From positions 1 through 64,000 of IMG/VR virus record IMGVR_UViG_3300032237_000561: a stretch of 64,000 nucleotides of DNA. One strand, 5' to 3'. The notes beneath the pieces are model-generated. The model was given only the letters and a program-made list of their open reading frames with translations, was not told the origin of the DNA and searched no databases. Shown piece by piece: positions 15,871 to 62,375 of the stretch. Every line of letters starts with the position of its first letter. Position 1 is the first letter of the stretch. Made by a program: the position numbers and the translations under genes. This stretch comes from a virus. Its lineage: Duplodnaviria; Caudoviricetes.

Positions 15871-17751
15871 ATGCGCCGTGTTGTTTCTGCCCGCGAGCAG
15901 GTGGAGATGCTGTCCTGGTTTCGACAGGCTGCTCCTGGCGAATTTACCCCTGGTGCTGGGCTGCCGTTGTCTCCTAAGGCCACCCCGCCGCCTCGTATTC
16001 AGAACCCTGGTCCGGCAGCGATCCCGCAGCGCGCCCCGGAGAAGCCGCTGCCCGAAGGCGACTGGGTCTCGCACCCGGATTGGCGTAATGCCTCCGACGG
16101 CCTGGCGTTTTACTCTTCGGTCCGACCGCCGATATCCTCAGACGTGCCGCATCCCAGCGAGGTGCTGGACCCATCCAACCCTGATCACGTCGAACGCCGC
16201 GTCTACAAAGTCACCCACCCCAAGACCAAGTCCGTCACCGAATACCATTACCCATCATGGATCGACCAGGCCAAGGATTCCGCCGACCCGGTTAACGACC
16301 CGTGGGGCGTGCAGACCATGCCCGACAAGGTCATCCACTTCCCCAACGGCATCCCCAAGGGCGAAGACGGCAAGACTCTGACCACCAAGCGTGGAGTGCC
16401 GGTTGATAAGGACACCCGCTGGCGTAACCGCAATGGCATCGACATTTCCAACGCGCACGGCCAGCCGGACAACACCCCCGAGCAGTTGGTGCAGAACCGG
16501 GTTGGCCACGAGCAATCGGCCACCCCGGAGCAGCACGAGAACCGCACCTGGTACCGGGGTGCACACGAGGAAACCAAGAACCTCGCCGACAAGACCCACG
16601 GCGACCACGAGCGCGTGGTGCACACCGTGTCGGCATTCTCTCCCAAAACTGAGTGGGACGAGAACATGGAGAAGGCGTTCCACTGGACCCTGAACAACCG
16701 CCCCGGCGGCGTGGGGCCGGGCGAGGGGCAAGCCTCTGAACCGTCGGTGCCGGGAATGCAGTCCCCGGTCAGCAAGGCCAGGGACATCTACAACCTGCCC
16801 GACGGCGAGTTCCAGAAGGTCAACCAGGGTCCGAAAACCTCTTCGTTCGCCAACAACATTCTCGACGACACCCCGGAGCGGGAGCCGCGCCCTGGCGTTC
16901 CCGACGACCACGGCTTCTATCAACATCAGATCAATCCTCACACCGGTGAGCCGGACTGGCGACTGCACACCGACCAGGACACCACTGTCGACACCCACGA
17001 CGTGCGGATGGCCAATACTGCTCCGCAGCAGCCCGGCGAGTCTCGCGAGAGCTACATGGGAAGACTGCGTCAGCTGCGTTACGAGACCCCGCTTCAGTTC
17101 GGCGCGAAGATCACTATGCCCGCACCCCGGCAGCAGGATGGGGAGTCGCACGAGGATTACTTCAAGCGGCTCAGTGATTCGGGCTTTAGCCCGACCATGA
17201 AGGAAAACGGCAAGGTGCATCCGGGCAAGGGCAAGACTCTTTACCCCGGCTACGAGATGATGGCCCGCAGCAATTGGGAGGCCCGCCGTCGCCTGAACGC
17301 CGCCGAGGAAGACCCTCTGCGTCACCGCGTTCCTAAGCAGGGCCAGAGCGTCACCTGGGGGAAATTTAAGGACGACCTGGATGAGGCTAAGAATAAGCAC
17401 ATGCCGCAGCCCGGCGAGCCACTCAAGAGCTTCCCTGACGATCCCACCGGAGAAGCGGTGGAGCAGTGGATGTCGAGAAATCCGCTCAAAGAACCGATAC
17501 CGCGCTACCGACGCGATATACGCAACGACAAGGGCGAATCGTACTGGACCGACCCGCGTCGACCTGACCTCGGCGATATTCGGCAGGCACCAGGATACGG
17601 TTTCCAGCCCTCGCACATGCGGCGCAAGAGCTACATCGAAGAACTTCTTTTTTCGGTCTCAGACACGTTGCAGCGCACCGCATTTGTCGATGAGGTAACA
17701 GAAACCCGGCATGTGCTGGCCTGGGTGGAGAACCTTTTCGGGGAACGCTGA
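15871..17751 (+). CDS. Leader-bearing protein 1; DUF7178-like (remote helix-hairpin-helix glycosylase-like) domain
   Basis: N-terminus MRRVVSAREQVEMLSWFRQA. Motifs WYRGAH, SAFSP..W..N, GPKTSSFANNI, TVDTH and QSVTW recalled from this phage family. Confidence 0.6.
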   Translation: MRRVVSAREQVEMLSWFRQAAPGEFTPGAGLPLSPKATPPPRIQNPGPAAIPQRAPEKPLPEGDWVSHPDWRNASDGLAFYSSVRPPISSDVPHPSEVLDPSNPDHVERRVYKVTHPKTKSVTEYHYPSWIDQAKDSADPVNDPWGVQTMPDKVIHFPNGIPKGEDGKTLTTKRGVPVDKDTRWRNRNGIDISNAHGQPDNTPEQLVQNRVGHEQSATPEQHENRTWYRGAHEETKNLADKTHGDHERVVHTVSAFSPKTEWDENMEKAFHWTLNNRPGGVGPGEGQASEPSVPGMQSPVSKARDIYNLPDGEFQKVNQGPKTSSFANNILDDTPEREPRPGVPDDHGFYQHQINPHTGEPDWRLHTDQDTTVDTHDVRMANTAPQQPGESRESYMGRLRQLRYETPLQFGAKITMPAPRQQDGESHEDYFKRLSDSGFSPTMKENGKVHPGKGKTLYPGYEMMARSNWEARRRLNAAEEDPLRHRVPKQGQSVTWGKFKDDLDEAKNKHMPQPGEPLKSFPDDPTGEAVEQWMSRNPLKEPIPRYRRDIRNDKGESYWTDPRRPDLGDIRQAPGYGFQPSHMRRKSYIEELLFSVSDTLQRTAFVDEVTETRHVLAWVENLFGER

Positions 17752-20084
17752 TGGCCCGCCGGATCGTCACGGCCCGTGAGCAGGTGGAGATGCTGTCCCC
17801 CTGGCGGCGCGAGGCTCTTATCAAAGAGGCAAAATACCCGCAGGTGTGGAGCGGCAAAGCCCCCTACGGACACCTCCCTTCGGGTCGCGCCCGTAACCGG
17901 CCACCGTCGGTGCGCCGCGATGCCGATGATCCTAATTCGGAGATTATCGACCCGAGCGAGATTCGCTATGAAGAATATGGTGATTCGGTTTCGGCCTTCC
18001 ACCCCAATGGCGAGCATATGGGTAACTATTCATGGGAAGACGATGGCGATCACGCCCACATCGGTATCGCCCAGGTCGATCCCAGGTATCAAGCGCAGGG
18101 TGTTGCTGGTGGCATCATCGACCACATTCGCGAACATCACCAACCTGACCTCGCCCATTCTGGGTACCAGGGTAATGGCACACTAAGTTATCAGGGCCGT
18201 GCCGGTGCCCTGCGCGACTTGGGAAACACCGAAGAAGAACACAACGATTACTTCAACACCACCCCATACAACTACGGGGAGTCACAGCCAGCGCAATTTA
18301 GTCTAAGGGACCCTGGTGGTGGAAGGAAGATACCCACCAAAACCGATGCCCAGCAGCGGGCGCATGACGAGTTGGTGCGGCAGTTCGAGGAAGACAAGAA
18401 CCACCCGAATTTCACAGGACAGCGCAGCAACGGCTCTTACTCTGGTAACTCAGACATGGTTGACGAGTATGGCGACCGGCACGAGTATGGCCACGACTCC
18501 GACGGCAATTATGTCGGAATATCTGACGGCAACAAGGATTCCGACGGGTACAGCGAAGAGGGCTACAACAGCGGAGGCTACGACCGCGACGGCTATAACC
18601 ACGAAGGTCTCGATCAAGAGGGCCGTGACGAGTACGGGTTCTCTGGGAAAACGGGACTAGACCGGGACGGGAAAACGCGGCACGGGTATACCCCCGGAGA
18701 CGGTACAGCTCCTGAGGGCACGGTCCCGATGAGTCAGATGGCGGAATATGCCAGTTCCCGGCACATCGCTCCGACGATGTATGCCGTGCGGCACCCCGGT
18801 GAGGTCAGCCCACACTCTGGTGGCCACCACGTCGGCAACGGAGACACCCTGTATTCCTCGCTGGATCGGGCGCGTGAGGTGGCCTACCATCCCGATGACC
18901 CCAGCAAGGACAAGAATATCGTCAGCGTCAATCACCTCGACCCCGATTATTTGCACACCGACGCAACAGGGTCGAGTCCTTGGGACTTTCACTATGCCCC
19001 CGTGTCGCCAATGTGGGATGCCGAAGATACGGCCTCTACCCCGGCGAGCGTCGTCCACGACCCGCAACGCCATCAGCGCATCCTGGGCGACCTGGGGCAT
19101 GGCTGGAGCCAGAGCACCGAGTCGCCCCTGAGCGAGAACTCGGGATTTGAATACACCGACCCAAACAGCGGTCGCACTGGCCGCATGTACCAGGAGCGCA
19201 ACGGAACCTGGGCCACACAGCATGAGCCACTGTTTGGTGCCCGCAGGCAAAACCGATACGACAACCACCGCGATGCCGCTAACGCCATCCGCGAAGGAAC
19301 CCAGCCCGGCCCCACAATGGACCAGCACGCCCTGGAGGTCAACAATAACTACGAGGCCACAGGGGGAGGCAATGTGGACTGGGACCCGCATCCCAATGGT
19401 GGGGGACTCATGGCGAGAACACCTCACGGCGACCTGCATCTGACCCAAGACCCCAATACGGGATACTGGAACTACCACGCCGGGCCGCACGGTTCCCAGC
19501 CCGGCGACGAGGGCGGCATAAGAAGCCCGATTCCTGAAAACAGCCCAACCCGCGCCGCCGCATACGGCATTCAGTCCATCACCCGTCGCCCATTTCACGG
19601 CGGTCTGGCCGACGAACTTGGCGACGGGTGGGGGCCGCACCCATCGTCAGTAGGGGGCTATGCGCGGCGGCTGCCGTCGGGCAATCATGCGTTTGTGAGG
19701 AAAAACGACGACGGGACCTACAATTCGGGTATTCAACGAGACAACGGCTGGGGCCAGCCATACGGACGGCCAACAGTTAATCGGGACAGCCCAGACCTTG
19801 CCCAAGCGAAGGAATTCATCCATCACCGCGAAAATCCTGTTCCGGCCAGTGAACTAGGAAAGGGGTGGGAAGATGAAGACGGGGGGCCTCGGTCATTCCC
19901 TGTCTACACCCAACAAGGTTATCATCCCTCTGGGGCCAATGCCATTGTCGCCTGGAGCAATCAGGGTGGCTGGAGACCTGGCGTGTATCACCAGGGAAAA
20001 TCGTATAACTCTCCTTTACACAAGACTCCCCATGAAGCTGCCAATTGGGCCAACAACCTCATGGATGACCTCGGTAACAAATAA
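17751..20084 (+). CDS. Leader-bearing protein 2; GNAT acetyltransferase + acidic pentapeptide repeats + repeated small domains
   Basis: N-terminus MARRIVTAREQVEMLSPWRREA. Acetyl-CoA motif A VDPRYQAQGVAGGII. GY[DNS]xx repeats at ~18460-18690. Three LGxGW-initiated modules. Confidence 0.7.
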   Translation: MARRIVTAREQVEMLSPWRREALIKEAKYPQVWSGKAPYGHLPSGRARNRPPSVRRDADDPNSEIIDPSEIRYEEYGDSVSAFHPNGEHMGNYSWEDDGDHAHIGIAQVDPRYQAQGVAGGIIDHIREHHQPDLAHSGYQGNGTLSYQGRAGALRDLGNTEEEHNDYFNTTPYNYGESQPAQFSLRDPGGGRKIPTKTDAQQRAHDELVRQFEEDKNHPNFTGQRSNGSYSGNSDMVDEYGDRHEYGHDSDGNYVGISDGNKDSDGYSEEGYNSGGYDRDGYNHEGLDQEGRDEYGFSGKTGLDRDGKTRHGYTPGDGTAPEGTVPMSQMAEYASSRHIAPTMYAVRHPGEVSPHSGGHHVGNGDTLYSSLDRAREVAYHPDDPSKDKNIVSVNHLDPDYLHTDATGSSPWDFHYAPVSPMWDAEDTASTPASVVHDPQRHQRILGDLGHGWSQSTESPLSENSGFEYTDPNSGRTGRMYQERNGTWATQHEPLFGARRQNRYDNHRDAANAIREGTQPGPTMDQHALEVNNNYEATGGGNVDWDPHPNGGGLMARTPHGDLHLTQDPNTGYWNYHAGPHGSQPGDEGGIRSPIPENSPTRAAAYGIQSITRRPFHGGLADELGDGWGPHPSSVGGYARRLPSGNHAFVRKNDDGTYNSGIQRDNGWGQPYGRPTVNRDSPDLAQAKEFIHHRENPVPASELGKGWEDEDGGPRSFPVYTQQGYHPSGANAIVAWSNQGGWRPGVYHQGKSYNSPLHKTPHEAANWANNLMDDLGNK

Positions 20085-20440: not shown

Positions 20441-20450
20441 TTCTTTCGTC

Positions 20451-21422
20451 ATGTCCCGCCGTATCGTCACTGCTCGCGAGCGGGTCGAGATGCTGTCGCC
20501 GTGGCGTACCGCCGAGCGGGCCGACAGGTTTGAGTGGGAACGCAGCTTCGACGGCCCCGGCGGCTGGATTCTCGTCACCCGGACCCCGGACGGCAACCCT
20601 GTCACGATCAGGACCGAGCCGACCAGGGGACAGCGTAGTGCCGCATTAGGGTCTGACAGGCCCACTACCGCAATCAACATTAACGACACCCACCAGGACT
20701 ACACCGGACAGATTCTGCGCGGCGAGAAGACCGTTGAGACCCGCAACACCAACTCGCTAAGGCCGTTGATAGGCGGCAGGTACGGAATCTCTCGCACCCA
20801 CGACAGCCGCAAGGTTCCGGCAATGGTGGTCGGCTACGCCACCCTCGGCGAGCCGAAGCTGTACGAGAACGCCGAAGACTTTGATGCCGACTACGACCTT
20901 CACCAGGTCGGCACAGATTCCCCGCACCACTTCAATAAGAGCCACACCGGGGTTAAGTTCGGCTACCCGCTGCACGACGTAGAGCAGGAGCCAGAACCGT
21001 TCCCGCCAGGACCGGGCAATCAGAAGTGGCGGTCGATCACCGCCATCCAGCAGCCCCCTGAGGGCCTGAACTTCCAGCACTGGGCGACCAACAAGCAGAT
21101 CGCCGATCACTTCGGTCGGTTCAATATGCCGATCATCGCCCCGGCGGTCACCGCTCATCTCAACGGCGAGATGGTCGGGTCGGTGGAATGGCACCCACAT
21201 TACGACAATGCCCCCGACCGGCGGGGCGAGGTCTCGATGATCAACGTCCCAGATAAGCACCAACGAAAGGGGATCGGGACCGCCCTGTACGACTGGGCGC
21301 GCACCAACGTGGAGCCGAACCTGCACCACTCACCGTTCCAGAGTTACGACGGCGAGGCGTGGGCCGCTGCCGAGGAGGACCGGCAGCACGAACCGTCTTA
21401 CCACACTTCCGCACTGTTTTGA
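20451..21422 (+). CDS. Leader-bearing protein 3; ASCH domain + GNAT acetyltransferase
   Basis: N-terminus MSRRIVTARERVEMLSPWRTA. ASCH signature ILRGEKTVETR. GNAT motif A VPDKHQRKGIGTALYD. Confidence 0.8.
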   Translation: MSRRIVTARERVEMLSPWRTAERADRFEWERSFDGPGGWILVTRTPDGNPVTIRTEPTRGQRSAALGSDRPTTAININDTHQDYTGQILRGEKTVETRNTNSLRPLIGGRYGISRTHDSRKVPAMVVGYATLGEPKLYENAEDFDADYDLHQVGTDSPHHFNKSHTGVKFGYPLHDVEQEPEPFPPGPGNQKWRSITAIQQPPEGLNFQHWATNKQIADHFGRFNMPIIAPAVTAHLNGEMVGSVEWHPHYDNAPDRRGEVSMINVPDKHQRKGIGTALYDWARTNVEPNLHHSPFQSYDGEAWAAAEEDRQHEPSYHTSALF

Positions 21423-22639: not shown

Positions 22640-22640
22640 T

Positions 22641-24677: not shown

Positions 24678-25670
24678 ATGACCGAACCGATCTATGGCCC
24701 CGAGGTCTACAGTCAGAAACTCGTCAGCCACGCCAAGGCCCGCAAGTTCGTTTCCCAGAACGGACGCGGGTACCTTTCTATTGGCATCGTCGACCGCGAC
24801 AACAAGGCGGTCGACCCCGACACCGATACCATTGCCCTGAAGGTCTGGCTCGATGCCCTGGACAACTCGACCGCCGATCCGCGCGGGACCAAGATCATCG
24901 ACGTAGATCACACCGACATTATCCGCGACGACAAGGGCATGTTCCGGTACGACATCGGACCGGAACACACCGGCCAGCGGGGTCTTCTGACGGTGGAGTG
25001 GTCGTATTCCGTTGGGGAAACAAACTTTACGTTTCAGGACGATATGCAAATTCTGGAGCAGATGCCCAACTACGAGGCACTCAACGACAAGACCAAGCTG
25101 ATGGTCGAGCAGGCCAGCTGGTTCTTCGCCGACCTCTTTGATTCGACGACCGGCGGGCCGTGGCTCAACGAGAACTTCCAGACTCACTTCACCTATGACC
25201 GCATGGCGTTCCTGCTGCGGATGGCGACGATGAAGTTCAACGTCTTGGGCTACCCGGTCACACAGTTCGGGGTCCTGACCGGCGATAAGGCGATCCCGGA
25301 CAACTACACCGATCTCCTGCTGTGGGGGACCAAGCTCGAAGCGATGCGGCACCTCATCACCAGCTACACCGAGATACCGGACTTCCGTAACATCGCGACG
25401 ACCTACACCGACCGACGTGACTACATGCAGCGGTGGCAGGCGGTACTAGCCGACGAGAAGCCGGACTACGAGAAGGCCGTCAAGATGAGTAAACGGTCTT
25501 TGCTCAAGCTGGGCCGTGGTTCGCTGTTGGTCGCTGGTGGTATCTACGGCGGCAGTGCCCGCAGCATGTACATCCCCGGCCTCTTCACGGCAATGACCCG
25601 CTCCATGCGGTTCTACCCGGCTGCCCCCAGCGTGAGTTGGGGTGCACAGGCGTTTGGACAACCCTGGTGA
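24678..25670 (+). CDS. Head-to-tail adaptor (neck) protein, putative
   Basis: 330 aa; N-terminal Ig-like part and helical C-terminus; position between head and tail genes. Confidence 0.55.
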   Translation: MTEPIYGPEVYSQKLVSHAKARKFVSQNGRGYLSIGIVDRDNKAVDPDTDTIALKVWLDALDNSTADPRGTKIIDVDHTDIIRDDKGMFRYDIGPEHTGQRGLLTVEWSYSVGETNFTFQDDMQILEQMPNYEALNDKTKLMVEQASWFFADLFDSTTGGPWLNENFQTHFTYDRMAFLLRMATMKFNVLGYPVTQFGVLTGDKAIPDNYTDLLLWGTKLEAMRHLITSYTEIPDFRNIATTYTDRRDYMQRWQAVLADEKPDYEKAVKMSKRSLLKLGRGSLLVAGGIYGGSARSMYIPGLFTAMTRSMRFYPAAPSVSWGAQAFGQPW

Positions 25671-26188
25671 GCCGCCACCTGATGGCACGGTTCCGGCATC
25701 TTGCGTCCACGCCCGGCCTGAACTGGCAGCATGGCGTGGCTTTTCCCCACACCACAGAATGGTTTGGTGATGCCGCAAAAGACGCTTTGACCGACCCGGC
25801 TCGAAATCCCGACCACTATAATCCTGCGAATAATTCAGTCGCTTTTGCAGATCATGGCGAACAACGCTACGGCCTGGAAGTCATGCCTCATCAGCCTTGG
25901 AAGGATTCGCCGCCGGGATGGTCGTGGACAATCCAGAAACAAAACGGACCGGATGCCAGCAACCCGGACCACTGGGGATACTACTTTCACTTGCAGCGGG
26001 AGCATGGCCCGAGTTCCGCCAACCCTTCAGGGGCTAACTACTCTGGCGGTGCAAACAACAGCACCCGAGAAGAGGCGATGGCCGACGCGGAACATAACTT
26101 GCAGAAGCATCTCAATCACCTAAACGGCCAGCGTCCAAATATCGGCGAGTACGACATCAACGACATCATGCGCGGTGAAGGTTTCTGA
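25667..26188 (+). CDS. Hypothetical W-rich protein, resembles 26963-27364
   Basis: GTGA overlap with upstream stop; begins MSRHLMARFRHLA; contains WSWTI...TREEAMADAE. Confidence 0.6.
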   Translation: MSRHLMARFRHLASTPGLNWQHGVAFPHTTEWFGDAAKDALTDPARNPDHYNPANNSVAFADHGEQRYGLEVMPHQPWKDSPPGWSWTIQKQNGPDASNPDHWGYYFHLQREHGPSSANPSGANYSGGANNSTREEAMADAEHNLQKHLNHLNGQRPNIGEYDINDIMRGEGF

Positions 26189-26784
26189 TGCCCCGCGTTG
26201 ATCTCCCCGAGCCGTATTCGATCCGGCTGGCCCGCCAGTCGGTGCGCGACTCCCTCATGTCGCACGGCGAAGAGTGCGTCCTCCTGCACATGTATCACGC
26301 CAACGAGGTACAAGACACCCACCCCCGGTGTCCGATCTGCTTTGACGACATCTACAAGCAGGGCAGTAAGTACGACTGTTCCCGTTGCTACGGAACGACT
26401 TTCGACGGCGGGGTCATGCACTCTTACCGGGCGTGGGCGATCTTCACTGACGCGACCGATGCCGAGACCTTCGGTAAGCGTGGTCTCTGGCATCCCATCG
26501 CCAGCTCGGTCCAGACTGAGCACCTCCCCGACCTCTGGCAGCGCGACTACATCATCCGGGTCGCCCGCTGGACCTCCGACCACCGGGTCGCCGAGGTCGA
26601 CGGTATCTACGTCCTGAAGCAGGTCGTTAACGAGAGCCTGCGGACCGGGGCGATGCACGCCCAGACGGTCTACGACACCATCGGCCAGCGGACCGATGTG
26701 TCGTTGATCGCCGACAACATGCCGATCAACCTGTTTCCGGTCAAGGGTGTCCGGTTCGACCGCTTCGACGGGAGGCCGCGCTGA
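26188..26784 (+). CDS. Head-closure/neck protein with Zn-finger insertion, putative
   Basis: CPIC...CSRCYGT.F.GG motif and position in the neck gene block. Confidence 0.6.
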   Translation: MPRVDLPEPYSIRLARQSVRDSLMSHGEECVLLHMYHANEVQDTHPRCPICFDDIYKQGSKYDCSRCYGTTFDGGVMHSYRAWAIFTDATDAETFGKRGLWHPIASSVQTEHLPDLWQRDYIIRVARWTSDHRVAEVDGIYVLKQVVNESLRTGAMHAQTVYDTIGQRTDVSLIADNMPINLFPVKGVRFDRFDGRPR

Positions 26785-26966
26785 TGGCAAGACCCACTAT
26801 CGCCCGGATCACCCTGGAGCGGGACATCACCGAATCTTTCCTTCGTCTTAGGCTGGCACGCGCCGAGCGTGACCGCAAAGAGGCCGAGGCGCACGAGGAG
26901 CGGCTGAACCGGCTGCTGGAGGGGATGCTGCGCGACGCGGCCCCGGTCGAGGAGATGGCTTCATGA
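26784..26966 (+). CDS. Small helical hypothetical protein
   Basis: Coupled on both sides (TGATG, ATGA). Confidence 0.6.
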   Translation: MARPTIARITLERDITESFLRLRLARAERDRKEAEAHEERLNRLLEGMLRDAAPVEEMAS

Positions 26967-27364
26967 GGATCGTTAGCGCACGCGAGCAGGTGCAGCTCCT
27001 GGCTGCCTGGCGGCGTACCGCCGGTTGGGCTGACTGGAAAGTCACCAATGAATACCCCGAACACGGTGGTGGCGCGCGGGATGAGGAAGCCAGGTTAGAA
27101 AACGGACACACCCTCGGAATTGGCAGCGGAAACTGGAACTCCAACGGACCACCCTGGCGGTGGCATTGGCACATCAGCGATGCCAACGACGAGTATGTGA
27201 CCGGCAGCGGCGAAGATAATCCTCCCGCTCACAGCCCGGAAGAGGCACGGCAGACAGCCGAACAGGCTTACGAGAAGATTTTCCCGGCAGGTAAGGCCAA
27301 CACCGGACCCCACGACTCCGGTGTGGACTACTCGGACCTGAACAAGTTCATGGAGGGTTCATGA
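26963..27364 (+). CDS. Leader-bearing protein 4; small W-rich domain
   Basis: N-terminus MRIVSAREQVQLLAAWRRTA; ATGA overlaps at both ends. Confidence 0.7.
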   Translation: MRIVSAREQVQLLAAWRRTAGWADWKVTNEYPEHGGGARDEEARLENGHTLGIGSGNWNSNGPPWRWHWHISDANDEYVTGSGEDNPPAHSPEEARQTAEQAYEKIFPAGKANTGPHDSGVDYSDLNKFMEGS

Positions 27365-27822
27365 CGAGAGTCGCTGTCCCTATTGCCCTTTCGGAGCTGA
27401 TCGCCCGCAAGGCTGTACAGAATGCCCGCCAGGATTTGGTCAAACGTAACTGGAAATCTGCCAGCGCGATTCATCCGTATTCGCAAGCAGGAAAAGTCGG
27501 CATCACTTCCACCGTCAACTATCTGCTTATTCAGAACCGGGGATTCAAGCCTTTCGTCATGTGGTGGGTCAAGAACCGGACGGTCCCGTTGGGATGCCCT
27601 CAAGGTGATGGACCGCACTTCCGTTTCGGCAACCCCGCCTCGGTCGGCGAACCTGGCGAGGTCGACATCCCGCACAAGGGCAAAGTGTGGCGCGCTAAGA
27701 GATGGCAGCATCCTGGCCTCACGCCAAAGAAATTCATGGAGACCGCGATCAGCCGAGCGATCAAAGACTCCCGTAAAGAAATCCAGAAATCGGTGATGGA
27801 CAACCTGCGGGGTGGCGCATGA
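27361..27822 (+). CDS. Basic neck/tail-completion protein (HK97 gp10-like), putative
   Basis: Basic 153 aa with HPG..PKKFMETAI motif; position before the terminator and sheath genes. Confidence 0.55.
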   Translation: MTRVAVPIALSELIARKAVQNARQDLVKRNWKSASAIHPYSQAGKVGITSTVNYLLIQNRGFKPFVMWWVKNRTVPLGCPQGDGPHFRFGNPASVGEPGEVDIPHKGKVWRAKRWQHPGLTPKKFMETAISRAIKDSRKEIQKSVMDNLRGGA

Positions 27823-28568
27823 CCGGCTGGCTTGACAACGAGACCCGGCCCGACCCGGCCCAGAGGGAAAACACCCCGTTCCCTGGCGCGGGCGGCTCCG
27901 GCATGATTGAGACCGTCAAGCGGGCGGTGATGAATGCCCTGCGCGAGGCTCTCACCGGGACCACCCTGAATCAGATGGTCAACGGGACCGATGTGACCAT
28001 CGACATGGAGTACCCCATCGAGAAGGAGAGCTACCCCGGCATCTGGGTCCAGTTCTCCTTCAACGAGATCGTCCAGGCCGGAATCGGCCACGAGCCGCTG
28101 ATCCGCAACGTCCTGGCCGAAGCCACCCCGACCAGCCCCGAGGTAGTCAACTGGGAGACCATCCGGGAATTCCAGTTCAAGGGCCGGGTCACCCTCACCA
28201 TCGTTGCCCTGACCTCGCTGGAACGCGACCGCCTGGCCGATGTGGTGATCACCATGTTGGCCTTTTCTCGGACCCCCAATACGGTCCTCACCGAACCCAC
28301 CAAGGACACCAAGCAGCTCCGGCAGTTGATCAGCAGCCTGGCCGAGAACCCGTATGTGTCGATGACCATCAACCACGATCAGGTCATCCCCGGAGGGCAG
28401 GCGATGACCACCGGGGTCCCGTGGGACGAGGAGATTCCCGGCTACGAGGACTCCTACAGCTTTGACATCCTGGGCCAGACCAACATCGTCTTCCACAACG
28501 ATGGCACCTACACCCTGAGAAACGTGGCACAGACCCCGGTCGTGGTAAGCCGCTACGACTGGCAGTGA
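27819..28568 (+). CDS. Tail terminator/completion protein, putative
   Basis: YP.I.VQ and IVALTSLERDRLAD motifs; directly upstream of the sheath gene. Confidence 0.6.
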   Translation: MTGWLDNETRPDPAQRENTPFPGAGGSGMIETVKRAVMNALREALTGTTLNQMVNGTDVTIDMEYPIEKESYPGIWVQFSFNEIVQAGIGHEPLIRNVLAEATPTSPEVVNWETIREFQFKGRVTLTIVALTSLERDRLADVVITMLAFSRTPNTVLTEPTKDTKQLRQLISSLAENPYVSMTINHDQVIPGGQAMTTGVPWDEEIPGYEDSYSFDILGQTNIVFHNDGTYTLRNVAQTPVVVSRYDWQ

Positions 28569-28629: not shown

Positions 28630-30345
28630 ATGGCCATCGACTTCACCACGTACAACCCGCCGGGAATTTACACCGAGTCGGTAGGCGGGCCACAGCTCGC
28701 CGTCCGTTCGACGGTGCCCACCGCTGTGGCCATCTTCGGCACCAGCGTGGGTTACAAGACCTACCGCGAAGCGGTCAAGATCAACTCCGACGCGGCGAAC
28801 ACCCCCGGCGGCGACGTGGTGCCGCAGAACAGCAAAGAACTGACCAAGGCGGGCATCAAGGTCCTCACCGACGAAGACGGGTTGATCCCCAGTCCTGTGG
28901 TCATTGTGGTCGCGGGCACCACGGTCGACCTCACGGCCCCCGGATCGTCATTGACCGGGGTCAAGCCCGACGGGACTTCCGGTGCGGTCACCCTCACCGC
29001 CGGTGACTTGATCTACCTGAACAACCAGACCCCTTCCACGCAGAACGGTCTCTACACCTGGAACCGGGCAGCCGACGATGAAGAAGACGGCGCGGCCCTG
29101 ACCGTCGTGGTGGACACCTTCAAGCTGCTCAACCCTGACACCGGCAAGGCTTACATTCGTGGCCTGGACTACCTGATTGTCAAGACCGACTCCGGTGCAG
29201 GCAACCTGAATACCACCCGCGACGACAAGTACGCCATCAGGCGAATCGACCGTGGTGCCACCGCAGGAATCCAAGAAGGCAAGTACGTCCAGGCTTTTTA
29301 TCGCTACACCAGCAAGGACTACCACGCCGTCCATGCTCTTTACGACTACGACGATGTCCGCGAACTCTACGGTGAGCCGTTTGATTCCAACGGCAATATC
29401 CTGTCCGAGATCACTCTCGCCGCGAAGTTCGCCTTCATCAACGGCGCGTCTACGGTCCTGACCTGTGCGATAGACCGCGAGACCTATCCTTCAGAGGCCC
29501 GAGCCTACGAAGAGGCCCTCAAGCTCTTCCGGGACGAGGACCAGATCGCCATCATCGTGCCCGGCACCGGTGACAGCTACATCTATGAGCTGGTCAAGGA
29601 GCACGTCAATAAGCAATCCGAGAACAAGTACGAGCGTCGTGCCCTCCTGGGAATCGACGGCTCGGTTAACTCGGTCGAGACCAGCATCCGTCAGGGCTAC
29701 GCCGAAACCCTATCCAGCTCGCGTATCGGTCTGATCACTCCGAGCCGGTTCGAATACTACGCACCGGAGCTGAGCGACAAGGTCATTCTGGGCGGTCAGT
29801 ACATGGCTGCGGCGGTGGCCGGGAAGAGCGTCTCCCAGATCGCCTCGATGCCGCTGACCCGTAAGGTCATCGACGGTTTCGTCGGTCCCGCCGAGTCGCC
29901 GATGCAGCGTGAGGGCGAGAAGGACCTGGAGACCCAGGCCGGTCTGATGGTCATCGAGAAGACCCGCCGCAACCAGGTCCAGGTCCGACACGGGGTCACC
30001 ACCGACTTCTCGGAGCTGCTGACCCGCGAGTGGTCAATCATCGGCCAGCAGGACGTGATGGTCTACCGAGTCCGGGACTTCCTCGACGCAGACGGCCTGA
30101 TCGGCATGCCGATCTACGACACGACCCTGATTCAGGTCAAGGCCAGCGCGGAAGCCGCCCTGCAGACCCTGATCCGGGACGGGATCATCGTCGGCTACCA
30201 GAACCTCAAGGTCCGCCAGATCGCGACTTTGCCAGACGTGATCGAGGTCCGGTACGAGTGGAAGCCCGCCTACCCGCTCAACTACATCGTTGTCCGGTAC
30301 AGCGTCGCCGTCATGACCGGCGACGTGACCATCACCAACGTCTAA
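28630..30345 (+). CDS. Contractile tail sheath protein
   Basis: N-terminal Y.PPGIYTE, AAAVAG..S..PLT.K, VRHGVTT and C-terminal YEWKPAYPLNYIVV sheath motifs. Confidence 0.9.
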   Translation: MAIDFTTYNPPGIYTESVGGPQLAVRSTVPTAVAIFGTSVGYKTYREAVKINSDAANTPGGDVVPQNSKELTKAGIKVLTDEDGLIPSPVVIVVAGTTVDLTAPGSSLTGVKPDGTSGAVTLTAGDLIYLNNQTPSTQNGLYTWNRAADDEEDGAALTVVVDTFKLLNPDTGKAYIRGLDYLIVKTDSGAGNLNTTRDDKYAIRRIDRGATAGIQEGKYVQAFYRYTSKDYHAVHALYDYDDVRELYGEPFDSNGNILSEITLAAKFAFINGASTVLTCAIDRETYPSEARAYEEALKLFRDEDQIAIIVPGTGDSYIYELVKEHVNKQSENKYERRALLGIDGSVNSVETSIRQGYAETLSSSRIGLITPSRFEYYAPELSDKVILGGQYMAAAVAGKSVSQIASMPLTRKVIDGFVGPAESPMQREGEKDLETQAGLMVIEKTRRNQVQVRHGVTTDFSELLTREWSIIGQQDVMVYRVRDFLDADGLIGMPIYDTTLIQVKASAEAALQTLIRDGIIVGYQNLKVRQIATLPDVIEVRYEWKPAYPLNYIVVRYSVAVMTGDVTITNV

Positions 30346-30869: not shown

Positions 30870-32234
30870 GTGTCTATGCCCATCCAACGCCAGAGCGAAC
30901 AGTATGGCGCGTTCGACAGCGGCCCGCGCTGGGAGCGGGACCGGGGCAGTCATGACCTCCCCAAGGGTTTAGCTGGTTTGATGAACAGCATGGGGCCGAG
31001 CATCCAGGCCGGTTTGCTGAACACCCGACTGGCGGTCAACACCGAAGGCATGGACCCTGACAGCCACGCCTACCACACCGAGCTTCCGGTCAACGGCCCC
31101 GCGCCTGGCCGGATATACAACCCCGACTTCCGCGAGTACGAGCCGTCCGAACAGGACGAGCGCGACCAGGAGGGCGTGGCCGAGGACGACGAGTCGGGCT
31201 ACAACTGGGGACCCGATCCCCGCCGTGCGAGCCGCCACCCTTTTGACCGTACCGCCGGGGCGTGGCAGGACCTGATTGACAAAGACAGCCCCGGCCCCTT
31301 TGACGGCGAAAACCCCGAAGATTTCTTCACCAACTGGTTGGAGCGTGGCGGCGAAGAAGAGCACCGCCACCAAAAAGAGTCCGGTCGAATTAATGACTTT
31401 ATGCGGGGCAGTCACACCCCCGACCACGAGGTGCCGTGGGAAGAGACCGACGAGGGCTGGCATCATCCCGCGACCGGACAGAAAATCGTCCCCTCCGACG
31501 ACACTCCCGGTCACTGGCAGCTGACCTCTCCGACTGTCGGTGACCGTGGTATGGCCAAGATTCGGGCACCGCACGCCGACCCGCAGGCGATCATGGACTG
31601 GCAGAAATATCAGATGGGCGGTCCGGCACCCGAGGGCCACAAGCCGCAATTCCGCGACCACATTTTCCCGCCGAACCCGATCCCATCACGTCAGTCAGGT
31701 CTGTTTCGCAACGCCGGATGCGAAACCTGTGGCGTTCCCGTCTACCACATTTCTGGCACCGGCTGGGTCCATGCCGACGACGACGACAAAGACGGCGAAG
31801 AACACGACGAGGACCACCAGGCCGAGCCGGACCACGACGATGACCTCGGTCTGGGTTTGTCGTCGATGAACGCCGAACACGAACGGCGTGAGCTGCAGGG
31901 GCGGATCAGCGAGCCGGACGTGCATGTCCATCGTAATGAGCCGGATACCGAAGACTGGGAGAACGGCTACAAGGTCGAGCACAACGACCCCCGGTATCAC
32001 CGGTACGAACCCGACATGGAGCGCGAGGGTCGCCGTACCGCTGCCGGTGAGGCTCCCGCCCCTGTACAGGCACCTCAGGGTGGCGGCTACCAGATCGGTC
32101 ACCGGATCGGTCTGGACTGGCGGGACAAAGTAATCCCCGGCACCGTCATCGGCCTTGACGGCCCGAGTGTCAAAATCCGTTGGGACGACAAACAGTATTC
32201 CACCGAGGAGCCTCGTAATATCCGACTCCTCTAG
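30870..32234 (+). CDS. Acidic/His-rich modular protein with R-x-A junctions and SH3-like C-terminus
   Basis: Segments separated by RLA, RTA, RNA and RTA; CETC motif; C-terminal IG.RI...GTVIG...V.IRWDD. Confidence 0.65.
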   Translation: MSMPIQRQSEQYGAFDSGPRWERDRGSHDLPKGLAGLMNSMGPSIQAGLLNTRLAVNTEGMDPDSHAYHTELPVNGPAPGRIYNPDFREYEPSEQDERDQEGVAEDDESGYNWGPDPRRASRHPFDRTAGAWQDLIDKDSPGPFDGENPEDFFTNWLERGGEEEHRHQKESGRINDFMRGSHTPDHEVPWEETDEGWHHPATGQKIVPSDDTPGHWQLTSPTVGDRGMAKIRAPHADPQAIMDWQKYQMGGPAPEGHKPQFRDHIFPPNPIPSRQSGLFRNAGCETCGVPVYHISGTGWVHADDDDKDGEEHDEDHQAEPDHDDDLGLGLSSMNAEHERRELQGRISEPDVHVHRNEPDTEDWENGYKVEHNDPRYHRYEPDMEREGRRTAAGEAPAPVQAPQGGGYQIGHRIGLDWRDKVIPGTVIGLDGPSVKIRWDDKQYSTEEPRNIRLL

Positions 32235-57735: not shown

Positions 57736-58907
57736 GCCTCGAAGATTCCTGGGACGAAGTCAACGGCACCGATGATCAACATTCCTGGCGGGCCGACTGG
57801 GCCGGTGACGAGGGCACCATCACCACCGGCGCGCTACCGGACGGATTCGACCCCCACGATTTTGACGAGGTCCTGAACCGGCTCGGCTACGCCCCCGGCG
57901 AGGTCCGCATGGAGCTGGTCTCGGCCAGCCGGTGGGAGCAGCGGACCGCCGTCCGGGGCGACGACGGACGTAAGACCGGCGAGATGACTTCGGTCTACCT
58001 CAACGCCTACAAGTACAAGGCCTTGAGAAACGCCTTCATGGTCAATCTCCCGGCTTTATACGCCGCCGTGAAGGCATCCCGGCCCAGTAAGTCCGAACCC
58101 AAGCTCACGGGCCGCTCAGCGGTCGTCTGCTGGGCTGATATCCAGGTGGGGAAGACCGATCACCTGGGGGGCCTGGAGGAGCTGCTTCAACGCCTGGAGG
58201 ATAAGCGGGTCGCACTCCAGGCGTGGCTCAAAGAGGAGAAGATCGACCATGTCGTGCTCTGCGATGTCGGCGACATCGTTGAGGGCTTCGAGAACGTGTC
58301 GTCCCAGACCCGGACCAACTGTTTGAGCCTGATGCAGCAGATCGACACCGCCGCCACCGAGTTCTGGCGCACCATCAAGGTCTGCGAGAAAGCCGGTCCG
58401 GTCGATGTGCTTTCCATCCCGTCCAACCATTGCCAGTGGCGCAAGGGCAAGGGACTGGTCGGTAAACCCGGCGACGACTGGGGGCTGCACATCTCTCAGC
58501 GTCTGGAGCAGCTCAACGAAGAAGCCGGACTTCGGGCAACCTTTCACCGCCCCGATACCGACTGGAACGAGGGGATGACCTTCAAAGTGGGCGGCGGCAT
58601 AATCGGCCTGGCTCACGGCCACCAGGCCAGCGGACCTAACGGAATCATCCCCTGGTGGATGAAACAGAAGCACCAGGGTCGGCTGTGCTGCGACGTTTTG
58701 GTCACCGGACATTTTCACTTCCCCAGCTTCCGGCCCTCCGGTCGCGACCCGGAGACCGGCAAGTCCAGTTACCACATCCAGGCATCTACTCTCGACAACG
58801 GTTCGTCCTGGGTGGCCAACAAGTTTGGTGAAGACGGGGACCCCGCTTTGACAGTTTTTGTGATGGACCAGGATGGTTTCGACGTTCGCAGTTTCGCGCT
58901 ACTTTAA
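57732..58907 (+). CDS. Calcineurin-like metallophosphoesterase (Mre11/SbcD-like)
   Basis: DIQVG, GDIVEG, SNH, AHGH and GHFH metal-binding motifs. Confidence 0.85.
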   Translation: MSLEDSWDEVNGTDDQHSWRADWAGDEGTITTGALPDGFDPHDFDEVLNRLGYAPGEVRMELVSASRWEQRTAVRGDDGRKTGEMTSVYLNAYKYKALRNAFMVNLPALYAAVKASRPSKSEPKLTGRSAVVCWADIQVGKTDHLGGLEELLQRLEDKRVALQAWLKEEKIDHVVLCDVGDIVEGFENVSSQTRTNCLSLMQQIDTAATEFWRTIKVCEKAGPVDVLSIPSNHCQWRKGKGLVGKPGDDWGLHISQRLEQLNEEAGLRATFHRPDTDWNEGMTFKVGGGIIGLAHGHQASGPNGIIPWWMKQKHQGRLCCDVLVTGHFHFPSFRPSGRDPETGKSSYHIQASTLDNGSSWVANKFGEDGDPALTVFVMDQDGFDVRSFALL

Positions 58908-58920
58908 AGGGGCTGGACAC

Positions 58921-59226
58921 ATGCAGGTGAGGGTCATCAAGTTCTTCGGTCGAGAAGTGCTGAGAATCGAAAACCATTACGAGGCAACGGTTTCCGATGT
59001 CATCAAGGCGATGATTGAGGCACGCGAGGCGACTGAAGAAATTCAGTACGTCTGCGAGTGTAGCTGTGGCGATGAGGAGGACGACGACGAGGAGGAGAGC
59101 GACGAAGAAGGCATTCGAGGCAGGTTCTCTGACATGACCGACCGGATTGTCTGGGATGCCCGAACCGACGACTACCCGCTCCCGTTTTCCAACCCCGATA
59201 ACGAAGAGGACGAGCCTAAACCATAA
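58921..59226 (+). CDS. Acidic hypothetical protein
   Basis: ATG 58921 with upstream AAGGGG; poly-D/E tract. Confidence 0.55.
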   Translation: MQVRVIKFFGREVLRIENHYEATVSDVIKAMIEAREATEEIQYVCECSCGDEEDDDEEESDEEGIRGRFSDMTDRIVWDARTDDYPLPFSNPDNEEDEPKP

Positions 59227-59719
59227 TTTCGGGTCGTCCCAAGTCGACAATATCGGTGAGTAAATGCAGCTTGACCTGGGGCAGCGCGTGAGTAGGTCCG
59301 TGACCAAGATCAGTAAGTGTTGACTTGTCTAACAGCTCCTGCGCTTCGGCATAGCCGACAAAATTAACAATGTTTTCCCGAACAATCGCCAAGATATAAA
59401 TGTCTGCCGGATTCTGCGCCTTCTTAGGGGTCGCGAGCAGACGACCATCTGTTCGGGTAGTCGCCTTGATGTCGATACGGATACCGTCAATCACCGAATC
59501 AATGCTTCCGCTACGGGGCTTGACTCCGAAATCTGGATAAGTGTTAGTGGCCTTGCCCCAGGCCATCTCGGCCACCATGCCGGTCATCTCAAGCTCAATG
59601 GCCTGATGGTTTTTGTCAAGCCTCCGGTCGATGACACTCAACGACTGGTTGATACAACGCCGCATAGTCGACATGAAATGAACAACACCCATTTCGCTGG
59701 GATTAAGTTCGACAATCAT
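59216..59719 (-). CDS. PD-(D/E)xK-like nuclease-fold protein, putative
   Basis: G..AE, D and IDIKAT motifs; TAATG coupling to the helicase; visibly lower GC. Confidence 0.55.
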   Translation of the reverse strand: MIVELNPSEMGVVHFMSTMRRCINQSLSVIDRRLDKNHQAIELEMTGMVAEMAWGKATNTYPDFGVKPRSGSIDSVIDGIRIDIKATTRTDGRLLATPKKAQNPADIYILAIVRENIVNFVGYAEAQELLDKSTLTDLGHGPTHALPQVKLHLLTDIVDLGRPEIMV

Positions 59720-61581
59720 TACGGTGCCTCTCCGAACAACAGCCATTCCAGGTTGTGGTTCTCATCGCGGGTGGAAAGGTCACCATAACTAAGTTCTTCT
59801 TGAGTTCCTTGCACCGCTGCGGCGAGTCGCCGACGATTTTCGCAGGTCTCCCACACCCGCTCCTCGACCGAGTCCTCGGTGATGAGGACGTAAGCCGTCA
59901 GGCCGTCCAGGTGGGAGTCGGCGCGGTCGATGCGGGCGTTGCGTTGGGCCAGGTCGTCATAGCTGTAGGTCGGGTCCACGTTGATCACGTAGCGGGCCTC
60001 TTGCAGGTTCAGGCCGTGGGTCCCGGCATCGCTGGAACAGAAGGCGGTGATGTTGGGGTCGGCTTTGAACCGGTCCTGGGCGCGCTGAGACTCTTTGGCC
60101 GACTGGCCGGTCCCGTAGTGCAGGACGTGCGGCACCGTGAGATGTCGGGCCAGCGGCAGCAGACCCAGCTCGGTCCAGTGGCAGAAGACCACCGCTTTGT
60201 CCTGGCCCTCCCGGATGTCGTCGAGGAGACCGTTAAGGACCTCGATCTTGGAGCTGTGCGCTGCATCGAGTAATTCAGGTCGCTCGGCGAGAAGCTCGGC
60301 GGCTTCAGGAGATGAGCTGTGCCGCAATGCTTCTGGGTTGATGCAGGCGATCCGGGCCATCAGATAGAAGGGGGACAGACCCTCACCGTTGCGGTGAGCG
60401 ATCCGGGCCTTGGCGGTGATGAGGTCGAGTAGCTCACGGGTGCCAGGTGTCGCCTGGACCGAAACCTCCAGTGTCTCAATGCCTTTAAACTGTTCCCGAA
60501 CTCCGGGGTCGGTCTTGCGGACCGCCATCGTCCGGTCCCCGACCCGGTGTCGGACCTCTTGGAGCTTGGTGAGGTTCCAGTCGTAGGTGGTGAAGGAGAA
60601 CTGCCCGCCGCTCTTGGTCCGTACCGGGACGCTGTTGACCCGGTCGGCGTAGCGGGAGATGAAGTCGGTCTTGGTCGACAGCGGGTTGCGGGCCGGGCGA
60701 CCGTCGAGGGAAAAGACATCCCTGAATCTCAGCGGATTGCCGCCGACGACGGTCGCCGACATCGGCCACACGGTGGCGGTACAGGCGGCGGTCAGCCGGT
60801 CCAGGGCCATCCTGGCCTTGTTCTGCCCGTTGTCGGTAATCAACTTGTGACCCTCGTCGAGGACCCACAAGACACGACGACCGAAGGTCAGGGCGGCGAT
60901 CTCCTCCTCGTCGTGCCACAACTTTTCGTAATTCATGACAAAAACCTGGTGCGGATCGTCATACCCCTTACGACGCTTGGCCTTGGTCCCGTCGTTGATC
61001 ACCGCATCCAGACCGGCGGGGTTGACGAAGGTCCGGCGCAGGTTTTCCTTGAGCTTGCTCAGGGTGCAGGCGATGACGAGGTCGATGTCGTCGGAGTCGA
61101 AGAGGGCCTTGGCGGCGGCACCGGAAGTGAAACTCTTTCCGGCACCGGCAGACCAATTCCAGAAGTACAGCCGGTCGGGGCTTTCGGTGCCCTGACGGGC
61201 ACGCTCCAGGGCACGATTGAGGGAGAAGGTCTGAAAGGGCCGGAGCGTGTATCCCTCGATCTCCAGGGGCTGTGACCAGCGTTCTATATCAGATTGGATA
61301 TGAGCGGTCGAGGGGGTCCAGAAGACGTGGTAGCCGTCCTGGCCCAGGAGGTCGGTGAATCGACGAGCGAGGTGAACCTCGTTGAGGATCAGGTGACGGG
61401 ACATCCAGTCCTCGTAGGAGCCGTAGAACAGTCCCCGAGCGGTCGCATCGAGCGGCTCAAAGCTCAGGTATCCGGGGTAGTCGGGGTGTTCCTCGACAAG
61501 GATGATCCGGGCCGGTGGGATGCCCGAGTCCAAAAGGTCGGCGACGCGCTTCTCCACGTCATCCAGGGTGGGTAACGACAT
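59719..61581 (-). CDS. SNF2-like superfamily 2 helicase/ATPase
   Basis: LRPFQ, AGAGKS (Walker A), VLDEGH, MSAT, GTHGLNLQ.A and QRNARIDR motifs. Confidence 0.9.
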   Translation of the reverse strand: MSLPTLDDVEKRVADLLDSGIPPARIILVEEHPDYPGYLSFEPLDATARGLFYGSYEDWMSRHLILNEVHLARRFTDLLGQDGYHVFWTPSTAHIQSDIERWSQPLEIEGYTLRPFQTFSLNRALERARQGTESPDRLYFWNWSAGAGKSFTSGAAAKALFDSDDIDLVIACTLSKLKENLRRTFVNPAGLDAVINDGTKAKRRKGYDDPHQVFVMNYEKLWHDEEEIAALTFGRRVLWVLDEGHKLITDNGQNKARMALDRLTAACTATVWPMSATVVGGNPLRFRDVFSLDGRPARNPLSTKTDFISRYADRVNSVPVRTKSGGQFSFTTYDWNLTKLQEVRHRVGDRTMAVRKTDPGVREQFKGIETLEVSVQATPGTRELLDLITAKARIAHRNGEGLSPFYLMARIACINPEALRHSSSPEAAELLAERPELLDAAHSSKIEVLNGLLDDIREGQDKAVVFCHWTELGLLPLARHLTVPHVLHYGTGQSAKESQRAQDRFKADPNITAFCSSDAGTHGLNLQEARYVINVDPTYSYDDLAQRNARIDRADSHLDGLTAYVLITEDSVEERVWETCENRRRLAAAVQGTQEELSYGDLSTRDENHNLEWLLFGEAP

Positions 61582-61601
61582 GATGTGTAGAGACTACAGG
61601 A

Positions 61602-62375
61602 TCAGAACGGGTATCCATAGCGACTGGCGGTGATGTGATCGTCACGAAGCCCGTGATCCATGATCGGGTTCCAGTCATTTCCGTAATGACTGAAGTCGTC
61701 GGACTCTTCGGCGTTGTGCGGCACTCTGAGGTCTCGTATTGTCAGCGGGGCCTTCTTATGCTTGAGCATGACTTCGTACTCGTGGTTGAAGTTTCCAGAC
61801 CCGGCACGGTTGTGGTTTTCACCGGCATGATTCCAGTCGGCATCAAGGAAGGTCGGCAAGTACCGCCCGTACCCGGAAGAGTTGTATGACCCTTCCCCGA
61901 TCCCTCGACCGTAATTGTCGGCAACATCAAAGTCGGTACTCCAATGCTCCCCGGTGCCGCCCTTGGCCCTGAAACCGTCCAGAATTGCGTCGGCCAGTCC
62001 GGGGTGGTCGAACTCGCCGCCCCGGTCGTCGTAACGGATGTCAGCATCGGGGAACAGTCCAGGGTCATCGACCGGCTGGCCCTGGCCGTAGGTCATCTGC
62101 CAGACCTTGCGGAAAGCCGGGTCGTGAGTGTCAATGGGAACGCCGCGCATCAGGCGACCGACCTCACCCTTGACCTTTTCCATACCGGGAAGGGTCGGCT
62201 GGGGTAGCCGTTCTTTGCCGGAAAACTCAGAGTTTTTGGGACGAGATGCCCACTCGGCTTGGGCACCCGGATCGCCCTTGATTTTCTTCTCGTAATTTTT
62301 ACGATCCCTGGTCGGGCCATGAGTCCACGGCCCCAGCATTTCTGCTTGCTCGCGGGCGGTGATGATGCGGCGCAT
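61602..62375 (-). CDS. Leader-bearing protein 5; ADP-ribosyltransferase (R-S-E clade)-like domain
   Basis: N-terminus MRRIITAREQAEMLGPW; LMRG, HWSTD..VA..YG and EYEV motifs in the canonical order. Confidence 0.7.
   Translation of the reverse strand: MRRIITAREQAEMLGPWTHGPTRDRKNYEKKIKGDPGAQAEWASRPKNSEFSGKERLPQPTLPGMEKVKGEVGRLMRGVPIDTHDPAFRKVWQMTYGQGQPVDDPGLFPDADIRYDDRGGEFDHPGLADAILDGFRAKGGTGEHWSTDFDVADNYGRGIGEGSYNSSGYGRYLPTFLDADWNHAGENHNRAGSGNFNHEYEVMLKHKKAPLTIRDLRVPHNAEESDDFSHYGNDWNPIMDHGLRDDHITASRYGYPF

Follow-up and report, generated by a model that had tools for sequence, protein, structure and literature searches.

In the 64,000-nucleotide stretch of phage DNA analysed here (hereafter the window; positions 1 to 64,000 of the IMG/VR record IMGVR_UViG_3300032237_000561), five open reading frames (ORFs) encoding otherwise unrelated proteins begin with almost the same peptide, M-x-R-R-I-V-T-A-R-E-Q-x-E-M-L-S-P-W-R-x-A, which we refer to as the leader. 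Four of these genes fall in the interval from the capsid genes (7142) to the tail sheath gene (28630), while the fifth stands 35 kb away on the minus strand beside a helicase gene (Table 1), an arrangement that agrees with the one noted in the original prediction for this DNA, made from the letters and translations alone, in which the leader was proposed to be a packaging tag for interchangeable enzymes loaded into the phage head. Here, we describe the leader as a portable tag on enzyme- or toxin-like cargo, selected as a peptide, restricted to one phage lineage and placed as cassettes in the block of virion genes, and we weigh capsid loading, which we consider the best explanation of these properties, against its alternatives.

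Five proteins with a common N-terminal leader

The five ORFs have the positions and N-termini first given for them, and a hidden Markov model (HMM) built from these N-termini recovers the five proteins alone: against every open frame of the 94,593-bp genome it gave exactly five matches, with E-values from 8e-16 to 4e-13 and a runner-up at E = 1.4. The similarity begins at the start codon, with the DNA 5' of the starts sharing just a ribosome-binding site, and it ends about where it had been said to end, after some 20 residues. Over the 147 homologous leaders described below, information content falls to the background level right after position 22 (...P-W-R-x-A-[ASMG]), and the five bodies that follow have no mutual BLASTP similarity. 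A search for a motif common to the regions 5' of the leader genes gave a promoter-like pattern, TGACCGCCT..T.AAT, that was found once only, and megablast of the leader region found no near-identical phage genome.

The synonymous codon changes between copies had been taken as a sign that selection acts on the peptide, and the counts bear this out. Across a 15-codon core of the leader, the mean proportion of synonymous differences (pS) is 0.61, which places synonymous sites near saturation, and that of non-synonymous differences (pN) is 0.20, making the latter three times rarer; the copies are therefore old, and it is the peptide that has been under selection. An RNA or DNA element in place of a peptide was rejected, given that the 5' DNA is unconserved and the synonymous sites are nearly saturated.

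By its sequence, the phage is a relative of the Cluster C mycobacteriophages (Bxz1/Myrna), as seen in its major capsid protein (Table 1), which is also related to gp27 of phage G (PDB 6WKK), and in a tail sheath that is 64% identical to that of Myrna. Because the record begins partway through a head-module gene with a LysM domain and falls about 60 kb short of Cluster C genomes, five leader genes are a lower bound.

The bodies behind the leader differ in size and kind. That of leader gene 1 belongs to DUF7178 (PF23802; Pfam E 1.6e-13, 51.4 bits against a gathering cut-off of 27), and that of leader gene 3 contains a GNAT domain (Acetyltransf_1, 26.8 bits against a cut-off of 20.7), both as first labelled, and the ADP-ribosyltransferase (ART) label of leader gene 5 is supported. 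Two further labels fell short, the ASCH domain of leader gene 3 lying just under its cut-off (19.5 against 21.2 bits) and the GNAT domain of leader gene 2 below threshold (E 0.037, 14.8 bits against 27), and Pfam matched no family to the Trp-rich body of the 133-aa product of leader gene 4.

In the AlphaFold 2 (AF2) model of the DUF7178 protein, the predicted local distance difference test score (pLDDT) is below 50 over amino acids (aa) 1-56, with a leader helix at aa 7-13; the leader is set apart from the body, which follows a low-confidence linker of about 35 residues and has a confident fold (pLDDT 80-94). Foldseek found no match to the body model. In a full PDB scan with residues 202-510, 19 of the top 20 rows were HhH-GPD DNA glycosylases or a related queuine-salvage enzyme (DUF2419), the best structural alignment (VIA; Z 7.6, root-mean-square deviation (rmsd) 3.6 Å over 174 residues) being weak and a lead rather than an assignment. 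Given this weak likeness to glycosylases, the DUF7178 protein, which is probably the oldest bearer of the tag (see below), may act on DNA.

The product of leader gene 5 has the R-S-E order of motifs, with R77-G78, H144-x-S-T and E199-x-E201 invariant or nearly so in 17 homologues. Its AF2 model has a pLDDT of 65.8 and gave no significant match in Foldseek; VIA gave a weak alignment to TreX (Z 4.7, rmsd 3.3 Å over 98 residues), and its top rows, all weak alignments, are exclusively ART toxins or poly(ADP-ribose) polymerases (PARPs). The pair formed by leader gene 5 and the helicase gene recurs in the loci L021 and L038 (in L021, as in L019 below, the scan covered the flanks of the leader loci).

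Table 1. Coordinates of the leader genes and of other features discussed in the text (positions in the window)
Feature	Position	Strand	Description
1358-aa head-module protein	2482..6558	+	prohead-protease-like domain at aa 66-221; phrog_18299 'head maturation protease', E 3e-19
Capsid cement protein	6603..7139	+	Pfam Phage_cement_3, E 5e-95
Major capsid protein	7142..8143	+	90% identical to Cluster C1 (Bxz1-type) capsid proteins
Motif L-S-A-R-E in capsid N-arm	7250..7264	+	capsid aa 37-41, context RKLSAREKQAKL; candidate cleavage site
Leader gene 1	15871..17751	+	626 aa; leader aa 1-21 (nt 15871-15933), disordered Pro-rich linker to about aa 56, then DUF7178 body
Leader gene 2	17751..20084	+	777 aa; leader nt 17751-17816; sub-threshold GNAT hint at about aa 85-135
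Leader gene 3	20451..21422	+	323 aa; leader nt 20451-20516; ASCH-like plus GNAT body
Conserved block	24678..28568	+	330, 198, 60, 153 and 249 aa; function not assigned, called head-completion/neck by position
Leader gene 4	26963..27364	+	133 aa; leader nt 26963-27025; small Trp-rich body; slot between conserved neck genes
Tail sheath	28630..30345	+	marks the end of the head-neck block
SNF2-type helicase gene	59719-61581	-	neighbour of leader gene 5
Leader gene 5	61602..62375	-	257 aa; leader nt 62310-62375; R-S-E ADP-ribosyltransferase-like body; upstream of the helicase gene
Host-type promoter-like site TTGACC-17-TAAAAT	62527..62555	-	about 150 nt upstream of leader gene 5; 10/12 consensus matches

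The leader across phage proteins

A 30-position profile made from the five leaders and searched against 1.84 billion representative proteins (E <= 1e-3) yielded 169 protein clusters. The 150 matches listed include one false repeat protein, which leaves 149 real ones, and in 147 of these the leader lies within the first residues; lengths among the matches listed range from 33 to 1,375 aa. The consensus of the 147 leaders is M-x-R-R-[IV]-[VIL]-T-A-R-E-Q-x-E-M-L-[SA]-P-W-R-x-A-[ASMG], in which the tryptophan is present in all 147, alanine in 145, glutamine in 144, arginine and leucine in 143 each and proline in 141. A methionine directly follows the leader in 16 of the 147, as if the leader had been joined to an older start codon.

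The 147 bodies listed fall into at least about 92 groups when clustered at 50% coverage, a procedure that replaced single-linkage clustering without a coverage filter, by which 114 proteins had been joined via shared modules; modules are shuffled between leader proteins. Pfam recognises a minority of the 149 relatives, namely GNAT (12), DUF7178 (7), ParB_N (2) and, once each, glutaredoxin, DUF7251, a papain-fold glutamine-deamidase toxin (Gln_amidase), an SLT transglycosylase, a SprT-like domain and an Arr-type ADP-ribosyltransferase. With 169 N-terminally tagged clusters and about 92 body architectures, the portable tag with interchangeable enzymatic cargo that had been proposed from five proteins is borne out, and the profile matches, as anticipated, are N-terminal, sit on diverse domains and are limited to phages of the same capsid type.

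One arrangement places several leaders in a single protein. In an IMG/VR locus (L036:1573-5500), a single open frame right after the capsid gene holds three in-frame leaders, each with an acidic stretch behind it, and then a DUF7178 body, and the protein P0001 has the same arrangement. Its presence in both speaks against its being an artefact and would suit a polyprotein cleaved at every leader; the frame looks, from its sequence, like a polyprotein of leader-cargo units.

Distribution of the leader

A tblastn search with the 22-residue leader found it in 213 of 50,697 phage genomes, at one to three copies each. These records comprise 207 Cluster C mycobacteriophages and six Gordonia phages (Skog/SCentae type), and they are nested inside the 229 records that have this capsid protein. 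The DUF7178 protein, present in 206 records, nearly coincides with the leader-bearing set and is the only leader protein of Myrna, which suggests that it was probably the original bearer of the tag. Among 185,579 prokaryote species (one genome each) there was a single leader match, on a 1.7-kb contig of a metagenome-assembled genome; as this contig also encodes the 198-aa neck protein of the phage, it is a mis-binned phage fragment. All 12 of the IMG/VR leader loci (12/12) also have Cluster-C-type capsid, cement, neck or sheath genes, or the helicase.

The phage Settecandela (Phrappuccinovirus) belongs to a sister lineage, with a capsid protein 74% identical to that of the window, and infects the same host strain as the C1 phages, M. 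smegmatis mc2155. The gene after its capsid gene (gp57) starts VKRIITHREQAEAMQWWQ and includes an ART module homologous to leader gene 5 (E 6e-6), while in the neck slot the products of its genes 67 and 68 begin M-[ST]-(V)-AILKQA[QE]Q[FY]SWR, the body of gp68 being homologous (E 4e-15) to modules of proteins with the canonical leader. The Gordonia phages, on a different host genus, retain the canonical leader. With a different leader on homologous cargo in the same host, and the canonical leader in phages of another genus, the tag follows the phage and not the host or the enzyme, which points to a phage-encoded receptor.

Leader genes as cassettes in the virion block

The metagenomic relatives have leader genes with varied cargo in the same slots, between homologues of the genes at 24678, 26188, 27361 and 27819. 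In L012, L015, HyRo and this window, different cargo is found in the same slot with conserved neck genes on either side, L015 providing the example for the slot of leader gene 4. HyRo has an extra leader gene, of 142 aa, between the 330-aa and 198-aa genes, the locus L033 has five leader genes within 10 kb, and in L019, which belongs to a 152-kb soil contig, three stand in succession after the lysis genes. In Skog, leader genes follow the tail genes, and one of them is annotated as an acetyltransferase.

Some other genes have part of a leader, a possible remnant of one or a different start. Gene 165 of Gordonia phage Skog (L018:3747-5849), annotated 'glycosylase', begins MARRIVTAREQHSFRF, which is the first half of the leader only. 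In the window, a 183-aa Trp-/His-rich ORF of no family (25637-26188) lies between the 330-aa and 198-aa genes, a slot that holds leader genes in HyRo, L012 and Settecandela; its likely start, MARFRHLAS..., may be a decayed leader, and its proposed status as a paralogue of leader gene 4 was not supported. The family of JayJay gene 129 and LRRHood gp117 (PGDPTYRVPT...RHRQFN, possibly ParB-like) is leader-bearing in many metagenomic phages and starts MSLGDRSQIYAGRRQHQATPW in C1 phages; the pentapeptide QATPW is found in the cement protein too, close to its N-terminus. A 454-aa DUF7251 protein (30870-32234), positioned between the tail tube and tail chaperones, is a homologue of Myrna gp125 and LRRHood gp122, and its variable middle is made of modules seen in leader proteins, including a 63-aa stretch that shares 97% identity with part of P0054. 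In this protein, a degenerate leader remnant (LLNTRLAVNTE) precedes GMDPDSHAYH, a module that in P0009 and P0011 follows an intact internal leader.

A candidate cleavage site and processing enzyme

Across all of the genome's open frames of 100 aa or more, the pattern [LIVM][ST]A[RKA]E has seven matches, five in the leaders, one in an antisense frame and one in the N-arm of the capsid protein, the only occurrence in a real gene outside the leaders. The arm (Table 1) resembles the first half of the leader, RRIVTAREQVEML, and the two also share an arginine at P7, a hydrophobic residue at P5 and a leucine at P5'. The region around aa 37-41 of a capsid protein is a typical place for a maturation cut, and L-S-A-R-E is a candidate for a protease site of the Glu type shared by capsid and leader, a possibility of modest weight. 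In relatives, the capsid motif reads SARE, SARD, STYE, STPE or TAAE while the leader stays TARE, and just the acidic P1 is constant. The cleavage site of the phage G capsid protein was sought in PMC12484599 and is not stated there.

The 1358-aa protein of the head module, with its prohead-protease-like domain, is a candidate processing enzyme or receptor for the leader. In the protein atlas, the nearest named clusters to this domain are Peptidase_S77, S80 and S78, with a score of 0.88 that is a lead only; S77 and S80 are Glu-specific prohead proteases. Comparison of the domain with PDB sequences and NCBIfam gave no informative match. Modules homologous to later parts of the 1358-aa protein occur in some leader proteins.

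What the leader may do

The best explanation of the leader, and in our view a well-motivated one, is that it serves to load the tagged enzymes into the capsid, with cleavage and injection, to which we assign a probability of roughly 0.55. The leader, a short helix around T-A-R-E-Q-x-E-M-L followed by S-P-W-R-x-A, would act as an address tag specific to the phage, and the flexible linker would tether it to enzymes that are otherwise unrelated. A phage-encoded receptor would recognise the tag during particle assembly, most likely inside the prohead, where the scaffold or protease-fusion protein, the inner capsid surface and the portal are all options. The tagged enzymes would then be packed in the virion and enter the next host along with the DNA, and the prohead protease would probably trim the tag, either after the invariant A-R-E, which is similar to the capsid N-arm motif, or after R-x-A, where conservation ends sharply.

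A more elaborate form of this explanation is tentative and, on balance, doubtful. In it, the tag would have two parts, R-x-[IV]-[ST]-A-R-E mimicking the maturation site of the capsid N-arm and being cut by a Glu-specific prohead protease, and Q-x-E-M-L-S-P-W-R-x-A anchoring the cargo in the head, as an actinophage-wide system for packing a large, shuffling arsenal of ARTs, acetyltransferases, a deamidase, nucleases and a glycosylase-like protein and injecting it into mycobacteria and related hosts.

A number of observations weigh against capsid loading. No virion proteomics for Cluster C phages or leader proteins was found in the literature, and the GenBank record of Myrna labels several 'virion structural proteins', with its leader protein, gp102, not among them. 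In C1 phages, a cargo family stands at the neck slot without a leader (JayJay gene 129, L016:34232-35032; LRRHood gp117, L011:32602-33402). The 138.9 kb of Rhodococcus phage Finch, in which the capsid protein is 77% identical, contain no leader; the capsid can therefore do without the system, which is an accessory of this capsid lineage. Co-variation of the capsid N-arm motif with the leader was not found in relatives, and the family of the protease, and hence its specificity, is a lead. Lastly, leader gene 5 lies outside the late block, beside the helicase gene and behind a predicted host-type promoter, the best such match within 56-64 kb, which suggests early expression; as a counterpoint, in L019 the homologue of this gene stands with other leader genes after the lysis genes.

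Two of these observations, the early-looking operon beside the helicase and the absence of gp102 from the labelled virion proteins of Myrna, would also suit a role outside the virion. The leader could bind a phage-encoded partner, either an inhibitor or chaperone that silences or stabilises toxic enzymes or a factor that localises them, and the enzymes would act within the same infection with no injection. The toxin-like cargo domains are many (ARTs, GNATs, deamidase, nucleases), and a leader that follows the phage lineage needs a phage-encoded partner, although not necessarily a structural one. Most leader genes, however, lie amid head, neck and tail genes on the strand of the late block, the loci examined show no small, conserved partner gene alongside the cassettes, and the known common N-terminal tags of phages are packaging signals (PMC9024508), so that we regard such a partner as unlikely.

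The tag could also address the tail, neck or baseplate, whether the tail lumen with the tape measure or a docking place at the neck, and not the head interior, which would be a variant of capsid loading and not its opposite. Cassettes lie between neck genes just 5' of the sheath gene, the leader genes of Skog come after minor tail genes, and the DUF7251 protein shares modules with leader cargo from within the tail tube and chaperone interval, with a module that follows a leader in some relatives. A tail or neck address is nonetheless improbable, as the DUF7178 protein, the probable ancestral bearer, and the three-leader polyprotein directly follow the capsid gene, and cargo of up to 1,375 aa in many copies per genome is a better fit to the head than to the tail lumen.

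We give still less credence to a short linear motif that would bind the ribosome, a protease adaptor, a secretion machine or some other host factor and so impose one host fate on all tagged enzymes. The motif is indeed short, helical and very strongly conserved, and the tagged enzymes likely act on host targets, but Settecandela and the C1 phages carry different leaders on the same strain while Gordonia phages share the canonical one, the scan of prokaryote genomes found the motif on the single phage-like contig, and the leader has no hydrophobic core and hence no Sec or Tat signal. The Sec/Tat candidate was ruled out because the core after RR reads IVTAREQVEMLSPWR, with charges throughout and no hydrophobic stretch of 12-20 residues.

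Finally, a shared 5' coding segment kept for expression (translation initiation, a downstream box) or for recombination (a homology patch), with no role for the peptide, is very hard to credit: the cassettes clearly exchange at the leader boundary and 16 of the 147 leaders directly precede a methionine, but the peptide is conserved over synonymous sites near saturation, the 5' DNA is not conserved, and nearly all residues of a 17-aa core are more than 90% conserved in phages whose neck proteins are 50-77% identical.

Comparison with known systems

As a capsid-loading signal, the leader would be a further kind of N-terminal tag system, akin to the capsid targeting sequence (CTS) of phage T4 and the N-terminal signal of DarB in phage P1 and new in sequence and in the breadth of its cargo. 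Like the CTS, which is found on the internal proteins IPI-III, it is a short N-terminal peptide on otherwise unrelated myovirus proteins, with a predicted prohead protease gene near the capsid gene, a glutamate at the candidate cut site and a cargo set that is highly variable among relatives. ART-like cargo is a further likeness, T4 Alt being a packaged ADP-ribosyltransferase. The leader has, on inspection, no sequence resemblance to the T4 tag, and it would be CTS-like in function at most and not by descent; it is about twice as long (22 aa), and its conservation continues for 13 residues beyond the candidate Glu site. In this phage the putative protease forms one domain within the 1358-aa protein, with its family a lead, and the hosts are Actinobacteria.

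The CTS (Mullaney and Black 1996, as cited in PMC9024508) and the DarB signal are each sufficient to send foreign proteins into capsids (PMC9024508). For DarB, about 30 N-terminal residues of a large enzyme put a reporter in a myovirus capsid, and the cargo reaches the next host, while the Dar proteins gave no N-terminal consensus (PMC9024508). None of the systems described there has nearly as many cargo families as the leader, which differs from the DarB signal in that one consensus runs across many proteins per genome and across 169 clusters overall.

Other systems resemble the leader in part. In the MuF-domain polymorphic toxins of temperate phage heads, the trafficking part is the MuF domain of about 300 aa. 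Both systems combine, in the manner of polymorphic toxin systems generally, a conserved N-terminal trafficking part with swappable C-terminal toxin or enzyme domains (ART, deamidase, nuclease) and shuffling between loci, but the trafficking part here is a 22-residue peptide, and Phage_Mu_F is absent from the Pfam matches of the five proteins and of the 149 relatives. The cargo-loading peptides of encapsulins are usually C-terminal and uncleaved and belong to cellular nanocompartments; with the leader they have in common a short terminal peptide on unrelated enzymes and docking inside an HK97-fold shell, as an analogy only.

With more than 200 genomes, the Cluster C mycobacteriophages rank among the phages that have been sequenced most, yet every one of their leader genes bears the annotation 'hypothetical protein'. 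In the literature, no description of the tag was found, searches with the motif strings gave nothing relevant, and the leader is not mentioned by Pope 2011. If the leader is a loading signal, it would mark a large hidden set of injected actinophage effectors, with at least 90 cargo architectures, as a source of anti-defence and host-takeover enzymes, and it would explain why enzyme genes are dispersed among head and neck genes. It could also provide a 22-residue handle for packing chosen proteins into mycobacterial phages and delivering them to cells that are hard to transform. Whatever its purpose, a peptide so conserved on so many unrelated proteins marks an undescribed interaction central to the biology of these phages.

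Other features of the window

Between the promoter-like site and leader gene 5 there is a GC-rich hairpin (GAAGGCCC...GGGCCTTC; region 62462-62555, minus strand), and the 350 nt upstream of this hairpin and promoter region (62560-62900) look structured. ARAGORN detected no tRNA or tmRNA, and Rfam no other known RNA, in the region upstream of leader gene 5. No tRNA was found in the 64-kb window, and relatives have 30 or more. The cement protein had no match in the PDB.

At the left end of the window, the LysM-bearing head-module gene (1-2468; phrog_2940) is cut by the start of the record, which is probably incomplete or reduced. The interval from the capsid gene to leader gene 1 encodes two very large repeat proteins, one of 1220 aa with collagen repeats and a hint of CBM_5_12 (9829-13491) and one of 772 aa with nine IPT/TIG domains (13491-15809), and both are probably head fibres or decoration.

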